24,000 bases of DNA from Candidatus Electronema sp. JC (GCF_048287365.2 NZ_JBLWEM020000070.1:98456-122455), one strand, 5' to 3'; positions 8,905-18,522 are shown, counted from the first letter of the stretch. Numbers and translations are program-made. The notes: generated by a model from the sequence alone, not told the origin.

Positions 8905-10011
8905 ATGAGAACAAAGGTGCTGCTGACTGCCGCGATGCTGCTGCTTCTGTCCGCAGGCGGAGCTTTGGCCGGAGGAAAACATAAGAATTACACCTGCGAC
9001 GACTGCTCGCCGGACTGTTTGAAAAATCCCTACGGCAAGGGCTGCCCCGCTGTCTGCCGCTCGCCGGAATGCCAGGAGGCTTCCTGTGACAGCTGCACCC
9101 CGGAGTGCAGAAAAAACCCAAGCGCGGCAGGCTGCCCGGAAATTTGCAAGGATGTCAAGTGCCAGTCCTGCGAGGACTGCACCCCGGAGTGCAAGGTCAA
9201 TCCCGCTGATCCCGCCTGCCCCGACATCTGCAAGGACATCAAATGCTACACCTGCGAGGACTGCACCGCCGACTGCATCATCAATCCGTCCGGCCCCGGT
9301 TGTCCTCCGGCCTGCGCGGATCTCGGCTGCAATGTCTGCGACAAATTCCCCAAGGACTGTCCTGCCTCATGCAAAGACAATTCTGACGATCCGGCAAAAT
9401 GTCCGGAAGCCTGCAAAGGCGTGCCTGAGCAGTGCATTCCGGTGAAGCAGGTCACTTGCGACGACTGTCCGCCCAGCTGCAACGACAATCCTGAGCAATG
9501 CCCGCCGGAATGCCAGGAGCTGAACTGCCATCCCAAACCTGAAAGCCAGGCTGGCCCGCTCCGCTTTGTCGGCGACATCGGCTATTTCAAGCAGACCGAT
9601 CCTGCCGACTACGCCTTTGGCCGCATCGGCGCGGAATGGAGTCCCTTTGCCGCTGGCAGCGATTTTGAGAATGTCTCCTTCCTTGCCATGCTCGGCGTGT
9701 CCGCGCAGGTCGGCGGCACAGACGGCGACGACGCGCTGCTGCTCGACGTGTTCGCCCAGTACAACTGGAAAGCGGGTGACGTGGACGGCTGGATCGGCTT
9801 GGGCGTGGGCGGCTGGATCACCTCCGGCGACGTGGATGACGACTCTGGCGACACGGACATCGATGTGATGGCCAATGTCGGTGCCCGCGTTTATGGCGAT
9901 CCCGACGCGTTCAACGCCTCGCTCTTCCTCGAAATCCGCAGCGCGGTGGACGAGTTTGACGGCTTGGCCGAATATGGCCGCTTCGGCGGCGGTCTGCGGC
10001 TGAAGTTCTAA
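8905..10011 (+). CDS. Secreted cysteine-rich repeat protein with a C-terminal outer-membrane beta-barrel-like domain
   Basis: Sec-type signal peptide MRTKVLLTAAMLLLLSAGGALA/GG. Residues 31-208 carry 36 Cys in repeats of the form C-x2-C-x3-C-x8-CP-x2-C-x4-C. Residues ~220-368 are Gly/Asp/aromatic-rich with alternating hydrophobicity and end in ...GGLRLKF (terminal Phe, OMP beta-signal-like). A strong terminator follows. Confidence 0.85.
   Translation: MRTKVLLTAAMLLLLSAGGALAGGKHKNYTCDDCSPDCLKNPYGKGCPAVCRSPECQEASCDSCTPECRKNPSAAGCPEICKDVKCQSCEDCTPECKVNPADPACPDICKDIKCYTCEDCTADCIINPSGPGCPPACADLGCNVCDKFPKDCPASCKDNSDDPAKCPEACKGVPEQCIPVKQVTCDDCPPSCNDNPEQCPPECQELNCHPKPESQAGPLRFVGDIGYFKQTDPADYAFGRIGAEWSPFAAGSDFENVSFLAMLGVSAQVGGTDGDDALLLDVFAQYNWKAGDVDGWIGLGVGGWITSGDVDDDSGDTDIDVMANVGARVYGDPDAFNASLFLEIRSAVDEFDGLAEYGRFGGGLRLKF
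8995..9528 (+). repeat. In-frame tandem coding repeats (about 84 nt / 28 aa, six units, the last two degenerate)
   Basis: The best units are 9085-9168, 9169-9252 and 9253-9336 (CDSCTPECRKNPSAAGCPEICKDVKCQS / CEDCTPECKVNPADPACPDICKDIKCYT / CEDCTADCIINPSGPGCPPACADLGCNV). Shared DNA strings include tgcgaggactgcacc and ccggagtgca. Confidence 0.9.
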
Positions 10012-10021
10012 GCCGCAGCAG

Positions 10022-10052
10022 GGGGCCTGCGTTCCAGCAGGCCCCTTTTTTT
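10022..10052 (+). terminator. Rho-independent terminator of the Cys-rich OMP gene
   Basis: ggggcctgc (10022-10030), loop gttcca, gcaggcccc (10037-10045), then seven T (10046-10052). Confidence 0.85.
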
Positions 10053-10141
10053 CTTCCGCATTCAGTCAAGTTCATCGGCATTATTCAGCAGTAACTCCTT
10101 GTTTATTTTTATCATTTTTTTTGCTTTCAGCGGGTGCCGAG

Positions 10142-11749
10142 ATGATCACCAGAATGAAAATATCAGGCTTCAAAAATATCGTTGATCTTGATGTCCATTT
10201 CGGTCCATTCACCTGTATTGCCGGAGCGAATGGCATAGGAAAATCAAATCTTTTTGATGCGATCACTTTTCTGAGTTTTCTTTCTGAAAAAACATTTATT
10301 GAAGCAGCGATGTCTGTGCGAGGAGAAGGCGGACGGGCTTCAGACGTGAGGCATCTCTTTCACAGGAATGGAGATATTTACAGCAATACTATGTCTTTTG
10401 AAGTCGAACTAATCATCCCTGCTGAAGGAATTGATGACTATGGGCAGCCTGCAAAAGCCAGCATAACTTCCTTAAGGTACAAAATTATCCTTGCATATAA
10501 ACAAGATGACAACCATCCTTCTCAAGGAATGGTCGAACTCGTTCACGAGAGCTTAGAGCCTATAAAAAAAGGAGATGCTGCCAAATGTTTTCTCTTTTCT
10601 CAGAAAGCTGGAACATGGATAAACTCTGCAATCACAGGCCGACGTGCAGGCGGTCCGTTCATTTCAACCACAAAAAAAGAAAGCGATCAACTCATTCAAA
10701 TGCACCAAGACAGCGGTGGTCAAATGCACCAAGGCAGCGGTGATGGGGAGAAAAAAAAATGGCGGCGCGGCAGTGGACGTTCTTTTCGGGCGGCGGCATT
10801 GCCCAGAACGGTTCTTTCTTCTGCTACAAATGCAGTAGAAAGCCCAACAGCCTTGCTAGTCAGAAGAGAAATGCAGTCGTGGCGGATGCTTCAGCTGGAA
10901 CCTTCAGCACTTCGCAAGCCTGACGATATAACCTCGCCGAGAAGGCTGGGGGCAAATGGCGCACATCTGCCTGCAACGCTTTATCGGCTGGCGGGATGCA
11001 GTCAGCAGGATGCTGAAGATGCGGCAAAGCAATCTGATGGGGAACAAACTGACATCGAAAGTCAAGTCTACGCTGAGCTTGCAAACCAGTTGTCTGAATT
11101 AATTGATGATGTTAATACAGTGAGGGTTGATCGCGATGAAAAACGGGATTTGCTGACACTGGAAGTAGTTGACCGCAACGGAACTGCTCACCCGGCCCGT
11201 TCTTTGTCAGATGGGACTTTGCGTTTTCTGGCCTTGTCAATACTCGGCATGGACAAAGAGGAAAAAGGAGTTCTCTGTTTGGAGGAGCCTGAAAATGGCA
11301 TTCATCCAGAACGAATTCCTGCAATAATTCAACTTATTCAAGAGATTTCGACAAACACTGACATAGAGCTTGACGCAGACAACCCTTTAAATCAAGTGAT
11401 TATTAACACCCACTCTCCGGCTGTAGTGGCGCAAATACCAGATGACTGTCTTCTTATTGCTGAATTAAATGAATATTTGAATCAAGATGGAAAACGAGGC
11501 AGAGGTCTGTCGTTAAGCTGCCTTGATGACACATGGCGTGATAAATTAGAACTACGGCAAAAAATTGTTTCCAGAGGCAAGCTGCTTTCATATCTCAATC
11601 CAATTGAGCCATCCAAGGAAATTCAAAAAGATACAGTCGAAGAAACCGATCCTTCTAATAATAAAACTACAAAAAATGAACAGTCGTCACGCAGTCGCCG
11701 CAGAGTTGTTGACAGGATGCAGCAATGGCTGCCCGGTTTTTCCAAATGA
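10142..11749 (+). CDS. SMC/RecF/OLD-type ABC ATPase (AAA_15/AAA_21-like)
   Basis: MITRMKISGFKNIVDLDVHFGPFTCIAGANGIGKSNLFDAI (N-terminal strand plus Walker A), Q-loop-like WRMLQLEP, signature-like LSDGTLRFLALS, Walker B/D-loop VLCLEEPENGIHP, and H-loop IINTHSP. About 320 aa separate Walker A from the signature motif. The ORF opens at TTG 10121; ATG 10142 (or 10154) is preferred. AT-rich relative to the flanks. Confidence 0.88.
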   Translation: MITRMKISGFKNIVDLDVHFGPFTCIAGANGIGKSNLFDAITFLSFLSEKTFIEAAMSVRGEGGRASDVRHLFHRNGDIYSNTMSFEVELIIPAEGIDDYGQPAKASITSLRYKIILAYKQDDNHPSQGMVELVHESLEPIKKGDAAKCFLFSQKAGTWINSAITGRRAGGPFISTTKKESDQLIQMHQDSGGQMHQGSGDGEKKKWRRGSGRSFRAAALPRTVLSSATNAVESPTALLVRREMQSWRMLQLEPSALRKPDDITSPRRLGANGAHLPATLYRLAGCSQQDAEDAAKQSDGEQTDIESQVYAELANQLSELIDDVNTVRVDRDEKRDLLTLEVVDRNGTAHPARSLSDGTLRFLALSILGMDKEEKGVLCLEEPENGIHPERIPAIIQLIQEISTNTDIELDADNPLNQVIINTHSPAVVAQIPDDCLLIAELNEYLNQDGKRGRGLSLSCLDDTWRDKLELRQKIVSRGKLLSYLNPIEPSKEIQKDTVEETDPSNNKTTKNEQSSRSRRRVVDRMQQWLPGFSK

Positions 11750-12381
11750 AAGAAATACGCTGCACACTTCTTACTGACGGCAGTTCTGACAAAGCCCTGC
11801 TGCCAATCATTTCATGGCTCTTCCGGGAGCATTGTCCAGATTTCGCTGTTCAGAAAGCATGGGCAGACCTGTATAGGCTTCCCAAAGGAACTGTGAAAAC
11901 GTTGCCGGATCGCATCAGATTTAGCATTGAGCTTTATCCATGCGATGTGTTGTTTATTCATAGAGATGCTGAAAAAATGGAGCTGGAGGAAAGAATTGCT
12001 GAGATTCAAACCGCTTTGCAAGACACTGAGCATCCGCCGACAGTCTGTGTTGTGCCAGTCAGAATGACGGAAGCGTGGCTGCTGCATGATGAGCCTGCCA
12101 TCCGGCAGGCGGCAAGCAATCCAAATGGTCGGCAGCCTTTGTCATTGCCAAAAATGAGCAGCGTTGAAAATTTGCCCGATCCGAAACAAACTCTTTATGA
12201 CTTGCTGCGGACGGCAAGCGGGCCGATCAGCCGCAGGAGAAATTTTGATCCGGGCAGAATGGCACATCGCGTTGCAGATCGGATAAGCACCTTTGAACCA
12301 CTGCGTCAATTGTCCGCGTTCAGCAGGTTTGAAAGGGAACTTGTGGCGGCAGCCAAGGAGCAGCGTTGGACAATGTCATAA
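11746..12381 (+). CDS. DUF4276-like / TOPRIM-like small protein, partner of the ABC ATPase
   Basis: ATG 11746-11748 overlaps the ATPase stop TGA 11747-11749 (ATGA). Motifs: MKEIRCTLLTDGSSDKALLP (strand plus acidic motif), VLFIHRDAEK, VVPVRMTEAWLLHDEPAI, and NLPDPKQTLYDLL. Layout and length (211 aa) match my recollection of DUF4276. The family call is from memory and the first acidic motif is atypical (TDG rather than EG). Confidence 0.6.
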   Translation: MKEIRCTLLTDGSSDKALLPIISWLFREHCPDFAVQKAWADLYRLPKGTVKTLPDRIRFSIELYPCDVLFIHRDAEKMELEERIAEIQTALQDTEHPPTVCVVPVRMTEAWLLHDEPAIRQAASNPNGRQPLSLPKMSSVENLPDPKQTLYDLLRTASGPISRRRNFDPGRMAHRVADRISTFEPLRQLSAFSRFERELVAAAKEQRWTMS

Positions 12382-12409
12382 TTTCTGCTCAGTTGCTGCC
12401 GCCCGCACT

Positions 12410-12895
12410 TCAGCAGACCGCTCCGGCCTGAATTGCAATCACCTCGAATTCACGCACGCCGCCCGGCGTTTTGGCGACGATTTCATCGCCCACGGCCTTG
12501 CCGAGCATGGAGCGGCCCAGCGGCGCGAGCACGGAGATCGAGCCGCTTTTCACGTCCGCCTCTTCCGGCCCCAGCAGCTGGTAGGTGATCTTTTCGTCAG
12601 TGTTCATGTCCAGCAAGGTGATGACCGCGCCGAAGACCGCCCTTTTGGTGCTGACCTTGGTGCAGTCAATCACCTCGGCCCGGCCCAGCTTGTCCTTCAG
12701 CTCCATGATCCGGCCTTCAAGCAGGCTCTGCCGCTCCTTGGCCGCGTGATATTCAGCGTTCTCCTTCAGGTCGCCGTGAGCGCGGGCGGTCTCGATGGCG
12801 TTGACCACGTCAGGCCGCTCAACTTTCTCCAGCCGCTCCAGCTCCTGTTTCAGCTTGGCGTATCCATTCTTGGACATGGGGATGCGTTCAACCAT
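12410..12895 (-). CDS. greA: Transcription elongation factor GreA
   Basis: MVERIPMSKNGYAKLKQELERLEKVERPDVVNAIETARAHGDLKENAEYHAAKERQSLLEGRI... ATG 12893-12895 is preceded by AGAGGA. The track ORF starts 9 codons earlier. Confidence 0.95.
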   Translation of the reverse strand: MVERIPMSKNGYAKLKQELERLEKVERPDVVNAIETARAHGDLKENAEYHAAKERQSLLEGRIMELKDKLGRAEVIDCTKVSTKRAVFGAVITLLDMNTDEKITYQLLGPEEADVKSGSISVLAPLGRSMLGKAVGDEIVAKTPGGVREFEVIAIQAGAVC

Positions 12896-13006
12896 GATGC
12901 TGCGTTCCTCTTCCTTGTTCAATGGGTTTGCGATGTGCGGAAAATAAAATCCCTCCGCAGCAGCTGAAGCCGCAGGGGAAGGAAAAGCTCTTTGCTGCTG
13001 CCGTGT

Positions 13007-17112: not shown

Positions 17113-18522
17113 TTAGAAAGGAACTTCGTCTTCTTGAATTTGATTTATTGCATCATTACTTTCTTGCGGTTGTATTATCTCATCTTTCTCAAGAAGTTTT
17201 CTGAATTCATCAAAGTTATTAGACTCTTTTTCTATTTCCATATAAAAATCTTTCCATTTATCCTTCCTAATTGTTACGTTGTGTTTTTTTGTCAATTCAT
17301 ATAATTGACAAAAAATTATATCCATCCCGCCAGCATGCAAAATTTGATTTATCCTGCCAGCCCTATTCTTTAAAATTCCATCAAATAATATTTCTATATC
17401 GGAATTTTCAAAATATTTTATATGGGGAAGCAAAAAATCTACTCCGTTCTTGTAAGCTGAATCGAAACTGCCTGAAGTCATAAATAGCCTGATAGCTATT
17501 TCCTTTAACGTACTAGAATCAATCCCCTCTAATAGCTCTTTTAAATTATTTTGATTAAAATTATTGATTCTACTCTGCATCATATCGTTTATTTTTAAGT
17601 TCATTGAAGCCAGCTTTGGAACACTGTATTTATTTAGGTCTTTTCCAGACATTGATGATATTGTCGTTTCGAGACGTAAAATTGTAGCCTTTTCAAGGTA
17701 ATTCCATGCTTCGTTTCTTTTAATTAAAAATAGAAATAGTCTTCTGATTAAATAGTCATTAGTTGCAGCTACAAACTCTTTAAATTTTGTTTTAAACACT
17801 TCTATATATATATCATTGTAAATTCTTTCGATGGCTCCTAAAGCCGAACATATTCTTTCAAAGGATTCTAGATCCAAACCATTTTCATCCTTAAATATCC
17901 GTTTTAATAAAATAATTATCAAATTCCTGACGGTACTTTCCTTGGCTTTACCGAGATAATTATCTGACGAAAGAATTGTATAGGCAGAGTCGTCATTAAC
18001 TGGAAACGAGCTGCCTGAAATAAGATTAAATAAACGATCAATAGCAAATTTTCCTTTTACTGGAGGTCTTGATAATAGATAAGTTGATGCTTGGATAATG
18101 TACGCTTTAGTTAATTCAGAAGATGGATCAAATTGACTACCGTCAGCTAAAAAAGTTGGATGGGCGCAAAAGTTTCTATCTTCTTTCAAACGTTCGAGAT
18201 GTTTCTTCTCAATAACAGATATGAGTTCGATATTCTCACATGCATAGTCGAGTATATTACGCTCAAAATCTAACATGTTATTGATGTCATTTTGTTGTAT
18301 GGAGTTTAGTTTTTTTTCTAATTCGCTTGCTGCTTTATCGCCCTCAAGACTTAACTCGCGAATTTTCTCAATAATATCTACGCATACAGCAATCCAAGTC
18401 GAAATTATTGCCGCTCTGTATGCTCCCGCTCTATACGATGCAATTGCCTCTTCTAAGTATTGCTTGGATGATTCGTTGCGGGTTAATTGCCCGATTTCTG
18501 AAAGGTCTTTTACTCGAAACAT
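17113..18522 (-). CDS. Hypothetical protein with an N-terminal HEPN-like domain (R-x4-H), on a very AT-rich island
   Basis: 469-aa uninterrupted ORF in DNA at roughly 30% GC. N-terminal helix YLEEAIASYRAGAYRAAIISTWIAVCVDIIEKI and, about 85 aa later, LERLKEDRNFCAHP (R116-x4-H121, nt 18160-18177). This is the arrangement seen in DUF4145 / Abi_2-type HEPN domains. The remaining ~320 aa are helical, Lys/Asn/Ile-rich and unrecognised. Confidence 0.6.
   Translation of the reverse strand: MFRVKDLSEIGQLTRNESSKQYLEEAIASYRAGAYRAAIISTWIAVCVDIIEKIRELSLEGDKAASELEKKLNSIQQNDINNMLDFERNILDYACENIELISVIEKKHLERLKEDRNFCAHPTFLADGSQFDPSSELTKAYIIQASTYLLSRPPVKGKFAIDRLFNLISGSSFPVNDDSAYTILSSDNYLGKAKESTVRNLIIILLKRIFKDENGLDLESFERICSALGAIERIYNDIYIEVFKTKFKEFVAATNDYLIRRLFLFLIKRNEAWNYLEKATILRLETTISSMSGKDLNKYSVPKLASMNLKINDMMQSRINNFNQNNLKELLEGIDSSTLKEIAIRLFMTSGSFDSAYKNGVDFLLPHIKYFENSDIEILFDGILKNRAGRINQILHAGGMDIIFCQLYELTKKHNVTIRKDKWKDFYMEIEKESNNFDEFRKLLEKDEIIQPQESNDAINQIQEDEVPF

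Follow-up and report, generated by a model that had tools for sequence, protein, structure and literature searches.

An ABC ATPase/DUF4276 gene pair of the HEC-01 family in the cable bacterium Candidatus Electronema sp. JC, a candidate anti-phage cassette

Pairs of an ATP-binding cassette (ABC) ATPase and a TOPRIM protein, as in OLD, Gabija, PARIS, AbiL and MADS3-4, are a design met repeatedly in bacterial immunity, of which the DUF4276 branch is the least understood, with only two phage tests that disagree with each other. This study concerns a pair of that branch in Candidatus Electronema sp. JC, a cable bacterium from fresh water that belongs to the Desulfobulbaceae; it is located within a stretch of 24,000 nucleotides (NZ_JBLWEM020000070.1:98456-122455, hereafter the window) and consists of an ABC ATPase gene (gene 1, 10142–11749) followed by a gene for a DUF4276-family protein (gene 2, 11746–12381), both on the plus strand. 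The closest described family is HEC-01, defined by Payne et al. (bioRxiv 10.1101/2024.01.29.577857) as a two-gene module pairing an ABC ATPase with a TOPRIM-like protein and embedded in helicase-methylase-ATPase (Hma) systems, where the embedding was the context of discovery and is not a formal requirement.

Payne et al. and the Menshen paper both place DUF4276/HEC-01B in the TOPRIM superfamily on structural grounds, the former describing a metal site in HEC-01B that resembles that of BpOLD and the latter listing DUF4276 (Mad4) as a new member of the superfamily. Mad3 and Mad4 belong to MADS, a methylation-associated defence system of eight genes (Maestri et al. 2024, as described in the papers that cite it). 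In the PARIS paper (PMC11464382) MADS3-4 and AbiL are grouped with OLD, Gabija and PARIS as combinations of ABC ATPase and TOPRIM, with DUF4276 used for annotation, and PARIS itself is described as an ATPase scaffold that frees its nuclease upon trigger binding, the nuclease then cleaving tRNA. A language-model preprint lists MADS3-4 among the AAA_15/21 systems and holds nothing further on the pair, while the MANTIS preprint was found to be unrelated to the ATPase/DUF4276 module.

Since both PADLOC profiles of HEC-01 match and gene 2 directly adjoins gene 1 in the same orientation, the pair is, as judged from profiles and gene order, a further member of this PADLOC candidate family and not a new system. 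The function that best accounts for the evidence, to which we give a probability of roughly 0.65, is defence against phages or other mobile elements, in which the ATPase would act as sensor or regulator and the DUF4276 protein as nuclease effector. An ATPase-sensor/nuclease-effector anti-phage module had already been proposed in a first-pass annotation made from the sequence alone, and the same hypothesis is held in the literature for the HEC-01 family.

Two genes of the HEC-01 family

Gene 1 encodes 535 amino acids (aa) and was assigned to the SMC/OLD/AAA_15-AAA_21 type of ABC ATPases from PADLOC, Pfam, hhalign and the ratio of non-synonymous to synonymous substitutions (dN/dS). The profile comparison that had been suggested with the first-pass annotation gave HEC-01A as its best PADLOC model (PDLC04184, E=1.2e-95, 319 bits, best of 126 models matched), the match spanning residues 1–434 of 535 and profile positions 1–396 of 464. 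All other matches, such as AriA (4.5e-29), mad3 (6.9e-26), AbiLi (8.4e-18) and PtuA (~1e-11), were far weaker. Pfam returned AAA_21 (3.6e-28) and AAA_15 (1.7e-20) together with SMC_N, AAA_23 and DUF2813, the last three over the P-loop only. When compared by hhalign with an alignment of 32 sequences of the phage P2 Old family, residues 1–439 of gene 1 paired with residues 4–348 of Old, matching its ATPase domain (probability 95.6%, E=1.2e-8, 320 columns). A sequence search of the PDB gave no close solved structure; the leading matches were OLD nucleases, SMC, Rad50 and AriA, with the OLD entry 6p74 at the top (E 6e-6) by way of the P-loop only. More than 7,800 homologues of gene 1 were found.

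All motifs quoted in the first-pass annotation are present in the translations, GANGIGKS, WRMLQLEP, LSDGTLRFLALS, VLCLEEPENGIHP and IINTHSP in gene 1 and LLTDGSSDKALL, FIHRDAE and RMTEAWLLHDEPAI in gene 2. The conservation of the ATPase motifs was analysed in an alignment of 38 gene 1 sequences (A2), in which invariant residues are found in the Walker A motif or P-loop GANGIGKS (residues 28–35, 10223–10246; G28, N30, G33, K34 and S35), the Q-loop region WRMLQLEP (residues 247–254, 10880–10903; W247, Q251, L252, E253 and P254), the ABC signature LSDG (residues 355–358, 11204–11215; all four), the Walker B motif with D-loop VLCLEEPENGIHP (residues 377–389, 11270–11308; C379, E381, E382, P383, E384, N385, G386, I387, H388 and P389) and the H-loop NTHSP (residues 422–426, 11405–11419; all five). 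All of these, like the features of the window described below unless stated otherwise, are on the plus strand. Because Walker A, Q-loop, signature, Walker B/D-loop and H-loop are invariant, the product of gene 1 should bind and hydrolyse ATP.

The pair had at first been given a start at 10053, which proved to be intergenic and not the start of a gene. Gene 1 begins with the ATG at 10142, as judged from its N-terminus (MITRMKISGF; MITRMKISGFKN), which agrees with the N-termini of the homologues in A2, and from the conservation of a Shine-Dalgarno (SD)-like GGTG. The SMC/RecF/OLD layout first described holds for the ABC/OLD type (Pfam, hhalign 95.6%) but not for the single long helical insert, since the N-terminal half of an AlphaFold2 (AF2) model predicts an insert after Walker A that is largely beta-rich, with a helical segment following the Q-loop. 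Foldseek of this weak model returned PtuA, Rad50, SMC, GajA and AriA at TM ~0.2, predicted similarities that support the ABC class only.

Two further features of the ATPase lie outside its catalytic motifs. The C-terminal tail RRVVDR...LPxF (residues 521–535, 11702–11746; fuller pattern RRVVDR..D.QP.LP.F) is conserved in A2, with R525 invariant and R521, V522 and D524 at >=90%, and follows about 35 hypervariable residues; it could be a docking peptide for the DUF4276 partner, and thereby a new device for tethering an effector, or an oligomerisation peptide. The variable insert carries a 24-nt tandem duplication, QMHQDSGG/QMHQGSGD (10696–10742, repeat family D2, 96% identity). This duplication lies inside a low-complexity stretch rich in Gly, Lys and Arg and is found in the window and in one related metagenomic locus, L087, while being absent from another, L088, and from the other homologues in A2.

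Gene 2 was assigned to the DUF4276 family (HEC-01B), as a putative TOPRIM-like metal-dependent nuclease, from PADLOC, Pfam, AF2 and dN/dS. Its length of 211 aa and its ATGA overlap with gene 1 are as first reported, and a homology search matched it at 100% identity to a hypothetical protein of Candidatus Electronema sp. JC. The PADLOC match is to HEC-01B (PDLC04210, E=1.4e-23, residues 1–204, profile positions 1–210 of 217), and 10 out of the 10 families matched are HEC-01B models. Among its relatives DUF4276 was matched by 49 of the 49 aligned (best E=2e-7) and no other Pfam family was matched consistently; taken together, these profile matches make gene 2 a divergent branch of DUF4276 and of HEC-01B. 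The homologues number more than 2,000, an exhaustive profile search giving 2,302 clusters at 50% identity, 795 of them with E<=1e-30, and the top 150 representatives of the family are all stand-alone proteins of 194–269 aa. Judged from these 150 sequences, the clade is large, uniform and never fused.

The AF2 model of gene 2 is confident (pLDDT 90.1, pTM 0.82) and predicts a core of b1-a1-b2-a2-b3-a3-b4, after which the C-terminal half is helical. For conservation, an alignment of 77 sequences was used (A4; the protein of the window and 76 diverse representatives), in which G12, D15, H72, R73, D74, R83, P104, R120 and L150 are invariant. Three motifs stand out. Motif 1, D11-G12-S-S-D15 (11776–11790), forms the loop after beta1 (residues 2–9), with D in 66 and E in 11 of the 77 sequences at position 11. 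Motif 2, H72-R73-D74-A75-E76 (11959–11973), lies at the end of beta3 (residues 68–72), and position 76 is E in 66, D in 10 and N in 1. Motif 3, PVRMTEAWLL (residues 104–113, 12055–12084), follows beta4 inside the part of gene 2 matched by Pfam DUF4276, with E109, M107 and W111 each conserved in 76 of 77.

In TOPRIM nucleases the ligands of the catalytic metal are a Glu and a DxD motif at the ends of the corresponding strands. When A4 and the AF2 model are combined, the acidic residues D/E11, D15, D74, D/E76 and E109 of gene 2 are placed at the C-terminal ends of b1, b3 and b4. An acidic residue is thus found in the loop after beta1, directly followed by the invariant G12, and a DxD or DxE sequence after beta3, with D74 invariant and position 76 mostly E. 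By position in the model, motif 1 is putatively equivalent to the catalytic Glu motif of TOPRIM and motif 2 to its DxD. The best local hhalign match sets DGSSD of gene 2 on the invariant E398-G399-x-T401-E402 (EGKTE) of P2 Old, at a score that is not significant. It had been suggested that TDG in place of the usual EG might alter catalysis, which is unlikely because D and E alternate at position 11 within the family.

Pairing, mobility and history of the cassette

Ten independent loci were examined, including the Electronema JC type, the Electronema JM type, cyanobacteria such as Anabaena azotica and a metagenome-assembled genome of Kouleothrix (Chloroflexi). The ATPase gene is directly followed by a homologue of gene 2 (49–82% identity) in 10 of 10, the junction being a 4-nt overlap in seven, a 1-nt overlap in two and a 2-nt spacer in one, and gene 1 and gene 2 are an obligate pair. 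Both are under purifying selection, with dN/dS of 0.08–0.13 for gene 1 and 0.15–0.21 for gene 2. The two open reading frames (ORFs) are not due to chance, because they have thousands of homologues and dN/dS of 0.08–0.21. In all ten loci the pair is solitary among unrelated genes; the flanks differ from locus to locus and are of housekeeping or metabolic kind (aconitase, urease genes, dprA-topA, EPSP synthase, ubiX and others). The guanine plus cytosine (GC) content of the cassette is below that of its flanks in each case, in the extreme 0.445 against 0.70.

In the window, ORF calling confirmed both plus-strand frames as real (10121–11749 and 11725/11746–12381), and as first noted they run against the majority direction, about 15 of the about 20 genes being on the minus strand. 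The ATGA start/stop overlap (11746–11749), read directly in the sequence, indicates translational coupling of gene 1 and gene 2. Whole-cassette GC is 0.464, gene 1 having 0.449 (0.38 at third codon positions, GC3) and gene 2 0.50 (GC3 0.50), while the neighbouring Cys-rich outer membrane protein (OMP) gene has a GC3 of 0.75; per 500-nt window the values are 0.42–0.51 between 10001 and 12000 and about 0.58–0.64 in the flanks, against 0.60 for the host. The contrast of 38–45% with about 60% reported earlier therefore stands, the lower figure being slightly low for gene 2.

The cassette is wedged, as originally described, between the terminator of the OMP gene and the stop codon of greA. The former is an intrinsic terminator at 10020–10047, with an 11-bp stem (8 G-C pairs) and a T-run, that forms the left flank of the insertion, and a sub-threshold Rfam match falls only on this hairpin. 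The left edge of the mobile unit is the SD-like GGTG at 10133–10136, 5 nt ahead of the ATG of gene 1: in an alignment of the window, L087, L088 and the two JM-type loci L003 and L004 (A5), conservation between window-type and JM-type loci begins at GGTG and stops at the stop codon of gene 2. As conservation between sites runs from the ribosome binding site to the stop of gene 2 only, the mobile unit is essentially just two ORFs, and the region 10133–12381 is probably a compact mobile cassette made up of a ribosome binding site and two translationally coupled ORFs. A gap of exactly 28 nt (12382–12409) separates the stop codon of gene 2 from that of the convergent greA (12410–12922, minus strand; Pfam GreA_GreB_N and GreA_GreB), which is the right flank and lies outside the cassette. 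A hairpin extends over the stop of gene 2 and this gap (12345–12403, no strand assigned; inverted repeat I3 with 19-nt arms, -35 kcal/mol, z = -2.9 against shuffles) and is probably a bidirectional terminator common to gene 2 and greA. Neither tRNA genes, Rfam families (and with them any hidden non-coding RNA or retron component), an integrase nor an insertion sequence (IS) element were found in the window, and a scan for sigma-70 promoters upstream of gene 1 gave no plus-strand site meeting the consensus criteria.

The cassette is foreign and mobile, and its horizontal acquisition, proposed in the first-pass annotation, is supported by the low GC in 10 of 10 loci, by differing insertion sites within Electronema and by a near-identical tract shared between diverged lineages. 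In Electronema sp. JM, and likewise in a related metagenomic contig, the cassette lies at another site, upstream of aconitase, where it is bracketed by direct repeats of 140–173 bp with 81–93% identity (L003, 8273–8409 and 10631–10772; L004, 7328–7500 and 9750–9922). These repeats copy the upstream region of aconitase together with ~54 nt from the start of its coding sequence, so that a remnant ORF of 32 codons is left upstream, and are an insertion scar with target duplication. Similar bracketing repeats were absent from seven further regions, namely six other loci and the window, and around the cassette of the window no flanking repeats, IS elements or integrases were found.

Some further observations were made at individual loci. 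In L093 a 123-aa GIDA/TrmFO-like fragment (10630–11001) begins inside the end of the second gene of the cassette, a hint that a housekeeping gene was cut short or displaced by the insertion. In the cyanobacterial contigs L089–L092 a gene for a 1,129-aa SNF2/DUF3670 helicase (L089, 5046–8435) ends 34 nt upstream of the ATPase gene. Two Logan metagenome contigs, L001 (2,573 bp) and L002 (2,477 bp), carry a cassette nearly identical to that of the window (gene 2 100% and ATPase 99.8% protein identity) and both end ~60–180 bp from it on each side; such assembly breaks would fit strain-level presence/absence or heterogeneity of the flanks.

The history of the OMP-greA site was addressed in 34 genomes of Desulfobulbales, including Ca. 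Electronema halotolerans. The synteny sigma factor-DegT-greA is kept in these genomes and breaks at the 3' end of greA, downstream of which neither the cassette nor the OMP gene was found in any of the 34. Of the empty-junction comparison suggested at the outset, the absence of the cassette in relatives was thus borne out, while this greA-anchored search found no exact empty OMP-greA junction. Two metagenomic relatives, L087 and L088, keep the order OMP-pair-greA. For L088 the synonymous divergence (dS) from the window is 0.34–0.49 in the cassette and 0.24–0.42 in the flanks; divergence of such similar size would fit an insertion that the two share and have inherited vertically. In L087 the cassette is 98–100% identical to that of the window at the nucleotide level (dS 0–0.019), while on both sides identity falls to ~82–84% and the flanking genes have dS of 0.31–0.45. 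The cassette thus lies at the centre of a recombination tract, which points to an allele exchange or a sweep that took place recently between diverged lineages of Electronema.

The remaining part of the window is a core housekeeping region. From the left it contains pfk, a HhH-GPD glycosylase gene, rnhB, rplS, trmD, rimM, ffh and fabD, then a gene for a cytochrome-b-like membrane protein, the OMP gene, the ATPase/DUF4276 pair, greA and a DegT aminotransferase gene, and to the right a sigma factor gene, an amine-oxidase-like gene, an AT-rich ORF, a ketoacyl synthase gene, alaS and an isochorismatase gene. The AT-rich ORF is a second insertion (17113–18522, minus strand; GC 0.30–0.37 against 0.6 in the host), located between the amine-oxidase-like and ketoacyl synthase genes ~4.7 kb from the pair, and encodes a 469-aa protein without Pfam match but with a match over residues 15–387 to PADLOC PD-T7-3, a single-gene anti-phage system (E=5.1e-39). 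The product of the OMP gene (8905–10011) is a secreted protein of 368 aa that matches nothing in Pfam or PADLOC and the N-terminal half of which consists of Cys-rich units of a CxxCxPxC-type pattern on 84-nt (28-aa) tandem repeats. The conductive fibres of cable bacteria use a sulfur-ligated metal cofactor, and a Cys-rich envelope protein is intriguing in such an organism.

Proposed function and competing explanations

In the defence reading the ATPase and the DUF4276 protein would be made in fixed proportion and form a complex, in which an ATPase oligomer may sense an infection cue via its variable inserts. Binding or hydrolysis of ATP would then activate or free the DUF4276 effector, which may cut nucleic acid, either DNA, the substrate in OLD and Gabija, or tRNA, that in PARIS, and the cleavage would halt phage replication, probably at a cost to the cell. 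A link to defence is favoured by the report of protection by HEC-01, by the presence of Mad3/Mad4 in MADS and by the PD-T7-3-like insertion 4.7 kb away. The protection report comes from a cold-seep metagenome study, in which E. coli B was protected by one HEC-01 representative from one or more of the phages T4, T5 and T7.

A number of observations weigh against this reading. For HEC-01 as such, the representative studied by Payne et al. gave no phage protection in E. coli MG1655 delta-RM, the cold-seep study gives no quantified effect, and the phage-screened representatives all lie outside the clade of the window. The first-pass annotation, which took the pairing to have no experimentally defined function, was close to the truth as regards mechanism; the pairing is nonetheless catalogued, as HEC-01, and has been phage-screened twice with conflicting results. 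For gene 2, the Pfam match to DUF4276 (PF14103; 27.3 bits, E=5.2e-6, residues 70–199) falls short of the gathering threshold (30.2 bits). In a Foldseek search of the PDB the matches were generic flavodoxin- or receiver-like folds (best E 0.02) with no TOPRIM in the top 50, and against BFVD nothing was significant. Comparison with the 32-sequence P2 Old alignment by hhalign gave probabilities of 1.1% (alignment A1) and 0.3% (A4), and sequence and profile searches of the PDB gave spurious repeat-protein matches or nothing. For the ATPase, the AF2 model built from the 38-sequence alignment has a pLDDT of 56 and is confident for the N-terminal half only. As to distribution, the gene family is absent from 50,697 phage records and was found in 2 very large plasmids only. 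In the 10 sampled loci, moreover, the pair lies outside any recognisable defence island and is nowhere part of an Hma or MADS system.

The DUF4276/TOPRIM-like description first given to gene 2 stands for DUF4276 (49 of 49 relatives, HEC-01B), while its TOPRIM assignment is putative, being drawn from modelled motif positions and the literature without statistical confirmation by Foldseek or hhalign. Pfam matches to Toprim*, DUF4435 or RloB at E<=5 were likewise not found in the relatives of gene 2. With H72-R73-D74 as an invariant triad, with R83, R120 and K147 and with no significant TOPRIM match, the catalytic centre could be remodelled or the substrate a different one; the latter could be tRNA or other RNA, as in PARIS, or a nucleotide. 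The bolder proposal that the solitary DUF4276 clade (~2,300 clusters) is an autonomous defence system with an effector other than a conventional OLD-type DNA nuclease is rather unlikely.

Among the explanations that compete with defence, a selfish addiction module of toxin-antitoxin (TA) kind, with a DUF4276 toxin restrained by the ATPase or the reverse and no dedicated anti-phage role, fares best and is nevertheless improbable; such a module would be kept and would spread owing to the harm that its loss causes. The cassette is minimal and solitary between housekeeping genes at all ten loci and has been exchanged recently between lineages, as such a module might be, the Pfam description of AAA_21 reads 'putative AbiEii toxin, Type IV TA system', and one HEC-01 representative failed to protect. 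However, another did protect against phage, the family is nearly absent from plasmids (2 matches), where addiction modules are typically enriched, and the nearest characterised relatives, PARIS, OLD, MADS and Septu, are all defence systems; TA-like behaviour is moreover compatible with defence by abortive infection.

Slightly more improbable still is a dependent or orphaned accessory, needing a restriction-modification, Hma or MADS-type system encoded elsewhere and inactive or modulatory when alone. HEC-01 was defined inside Hma systems, Mad3/Mad4 belong to the eight genes of MADS, the representative of Payne et al. was inactive and the ATPase reaches 150 bits with the MAD3 model of NCBIfam, yet this score is far under the cutoff of 420 bits and the window holds no methyltransferase or helicase partner. 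The pair is also solitary in 10 of 10 loci with its catalytic motifs kept and under purifying selection, which argues for an autonomous function. A module for DNA repair or maintenance acting on host DNA structures, like RecF with RecR or SbcC/SbcD, is the least likely: the ATPase N-terminus does match RecF, RecN, SMC, Rad50 and SbcC models, Rad50 and SMC heads are among the Foldseek matches of its weak model and the neighbourhoods are of housekeeping kind (in L093 the cassette follows dprA-topA), but the RecF/SMC-type matches are weak, limited to the P-loop and far below those to defence ATPases, and a cassette that is foreign by composition in 10 of 10 hosts, absent at greA in 34 relatives, found at differing sites in one genus and recently exchanged between lineages shows a pattern unexpected for a core repair function.

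The locus is a clean natural example from cable bacteria, a group that to our knowledge cannot be cultured axenically and about whose phages very little is known. It indicates that a large HEC-01 clade lives as a minimal self-contained cassette moving between phyla, and the very recent exchange between diverged Electronema lineages is the population signature that would be expected under phage-driven selection.

Comparison with known ABC ATPase/TOPRIM systems

Several known systems were considered and rejected as a home for the pair. Gabija was rejected as neither a fused GajA nor an adjoining UvrD-like GajB helicase was found, GajA being only a weak and partial Foldseek match, and Septu or retron PtuAB as PtuA matches the P-loop only and no HNH protein (PtuB), reverse transcriptase or Rfam match was found. 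In AbiL an AAA_15/21 ATPase, AbiLi, is likewise combined with a non-canonical member of the TOPRIM superfamily, AbiLii, and the AbiLi model is among those matching gene 1, whereas AbiLii is a RloB protein (PF13707) and gene 2 a DUF4276 protein without RloB match.

The class 1 OLD proteins (phage P2 Old; BpOLD, 6NK8; Ts OLD, 6P74) are homologous to gene 1 from Walker A to the H-loop, and the acidic motifs of gene 2 match by position E-G-x-T-E and DxD of Old. In OLD, however, ATPase and TOPRIM are fused while here they are separate ORFs, motif 2 of gene 2 reads HRDxE and not DxD, and membership was rejected with the nuclease unfused and no match to PF20469 (Toprim_OLD) in either protein. The resemblance to PARIS first suggested applies at the level of logic only, that is an AAA_15/21 ABC ATPase with a small separate effector of the TOPRIM superfamily, AriA structures being among the PDB matches of gene 1. 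AriB is a DUF4435 protein (PF14491), which gene 2 does not match, and AriA is not the best ATPase family, its models lying far below HEC-01A with the best stretch of PDLC02980 covering residues 328–430 only, against 1–434 for HEC-01A; membership of PARIS was therefore rejected. PARIS is also often borne by phages or satellites, unlike the family of the window, which is absent from the phage collection.

With Mad3/Mad4 the pair shares the same domain combination, an AAA_15/21 ABC ATPase with DUF4276, and mad3 is among the PADLOC matches of gene 1. Against the NCBIfam model MAD3 (NF047739) gene 1 scored 150 bits (E=1.1e-43), short of the equivalog cutoff of 420 bits, the PADLOC matches of gene 2 are confined to HEC-01B and it has none among the NCBIfam defence families, and the remaining mad genes (methyltransferase etc.) are absent from the window, so that membership of MADS was rejected.

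The pair differs from HEC-01 in that the match of gene 2 to HEC-01B is only moderate and the clade of the window is solitary in 10 of 10 loci and not embedded in Hma, with no helicase or methylase in the window. The likeness extends to both genes, an ABC ATPase (not AAA+) being followed by a DUF4276/TOPRIM-like gene and the best PADLOC models of both being those of HEC-01. Among the ABC ATPase/TOPRIM systems the locus thus opens no new category, and its value lies in offering a well-delimited candidate for the biochemistry of HEC-01 and DUF4276.

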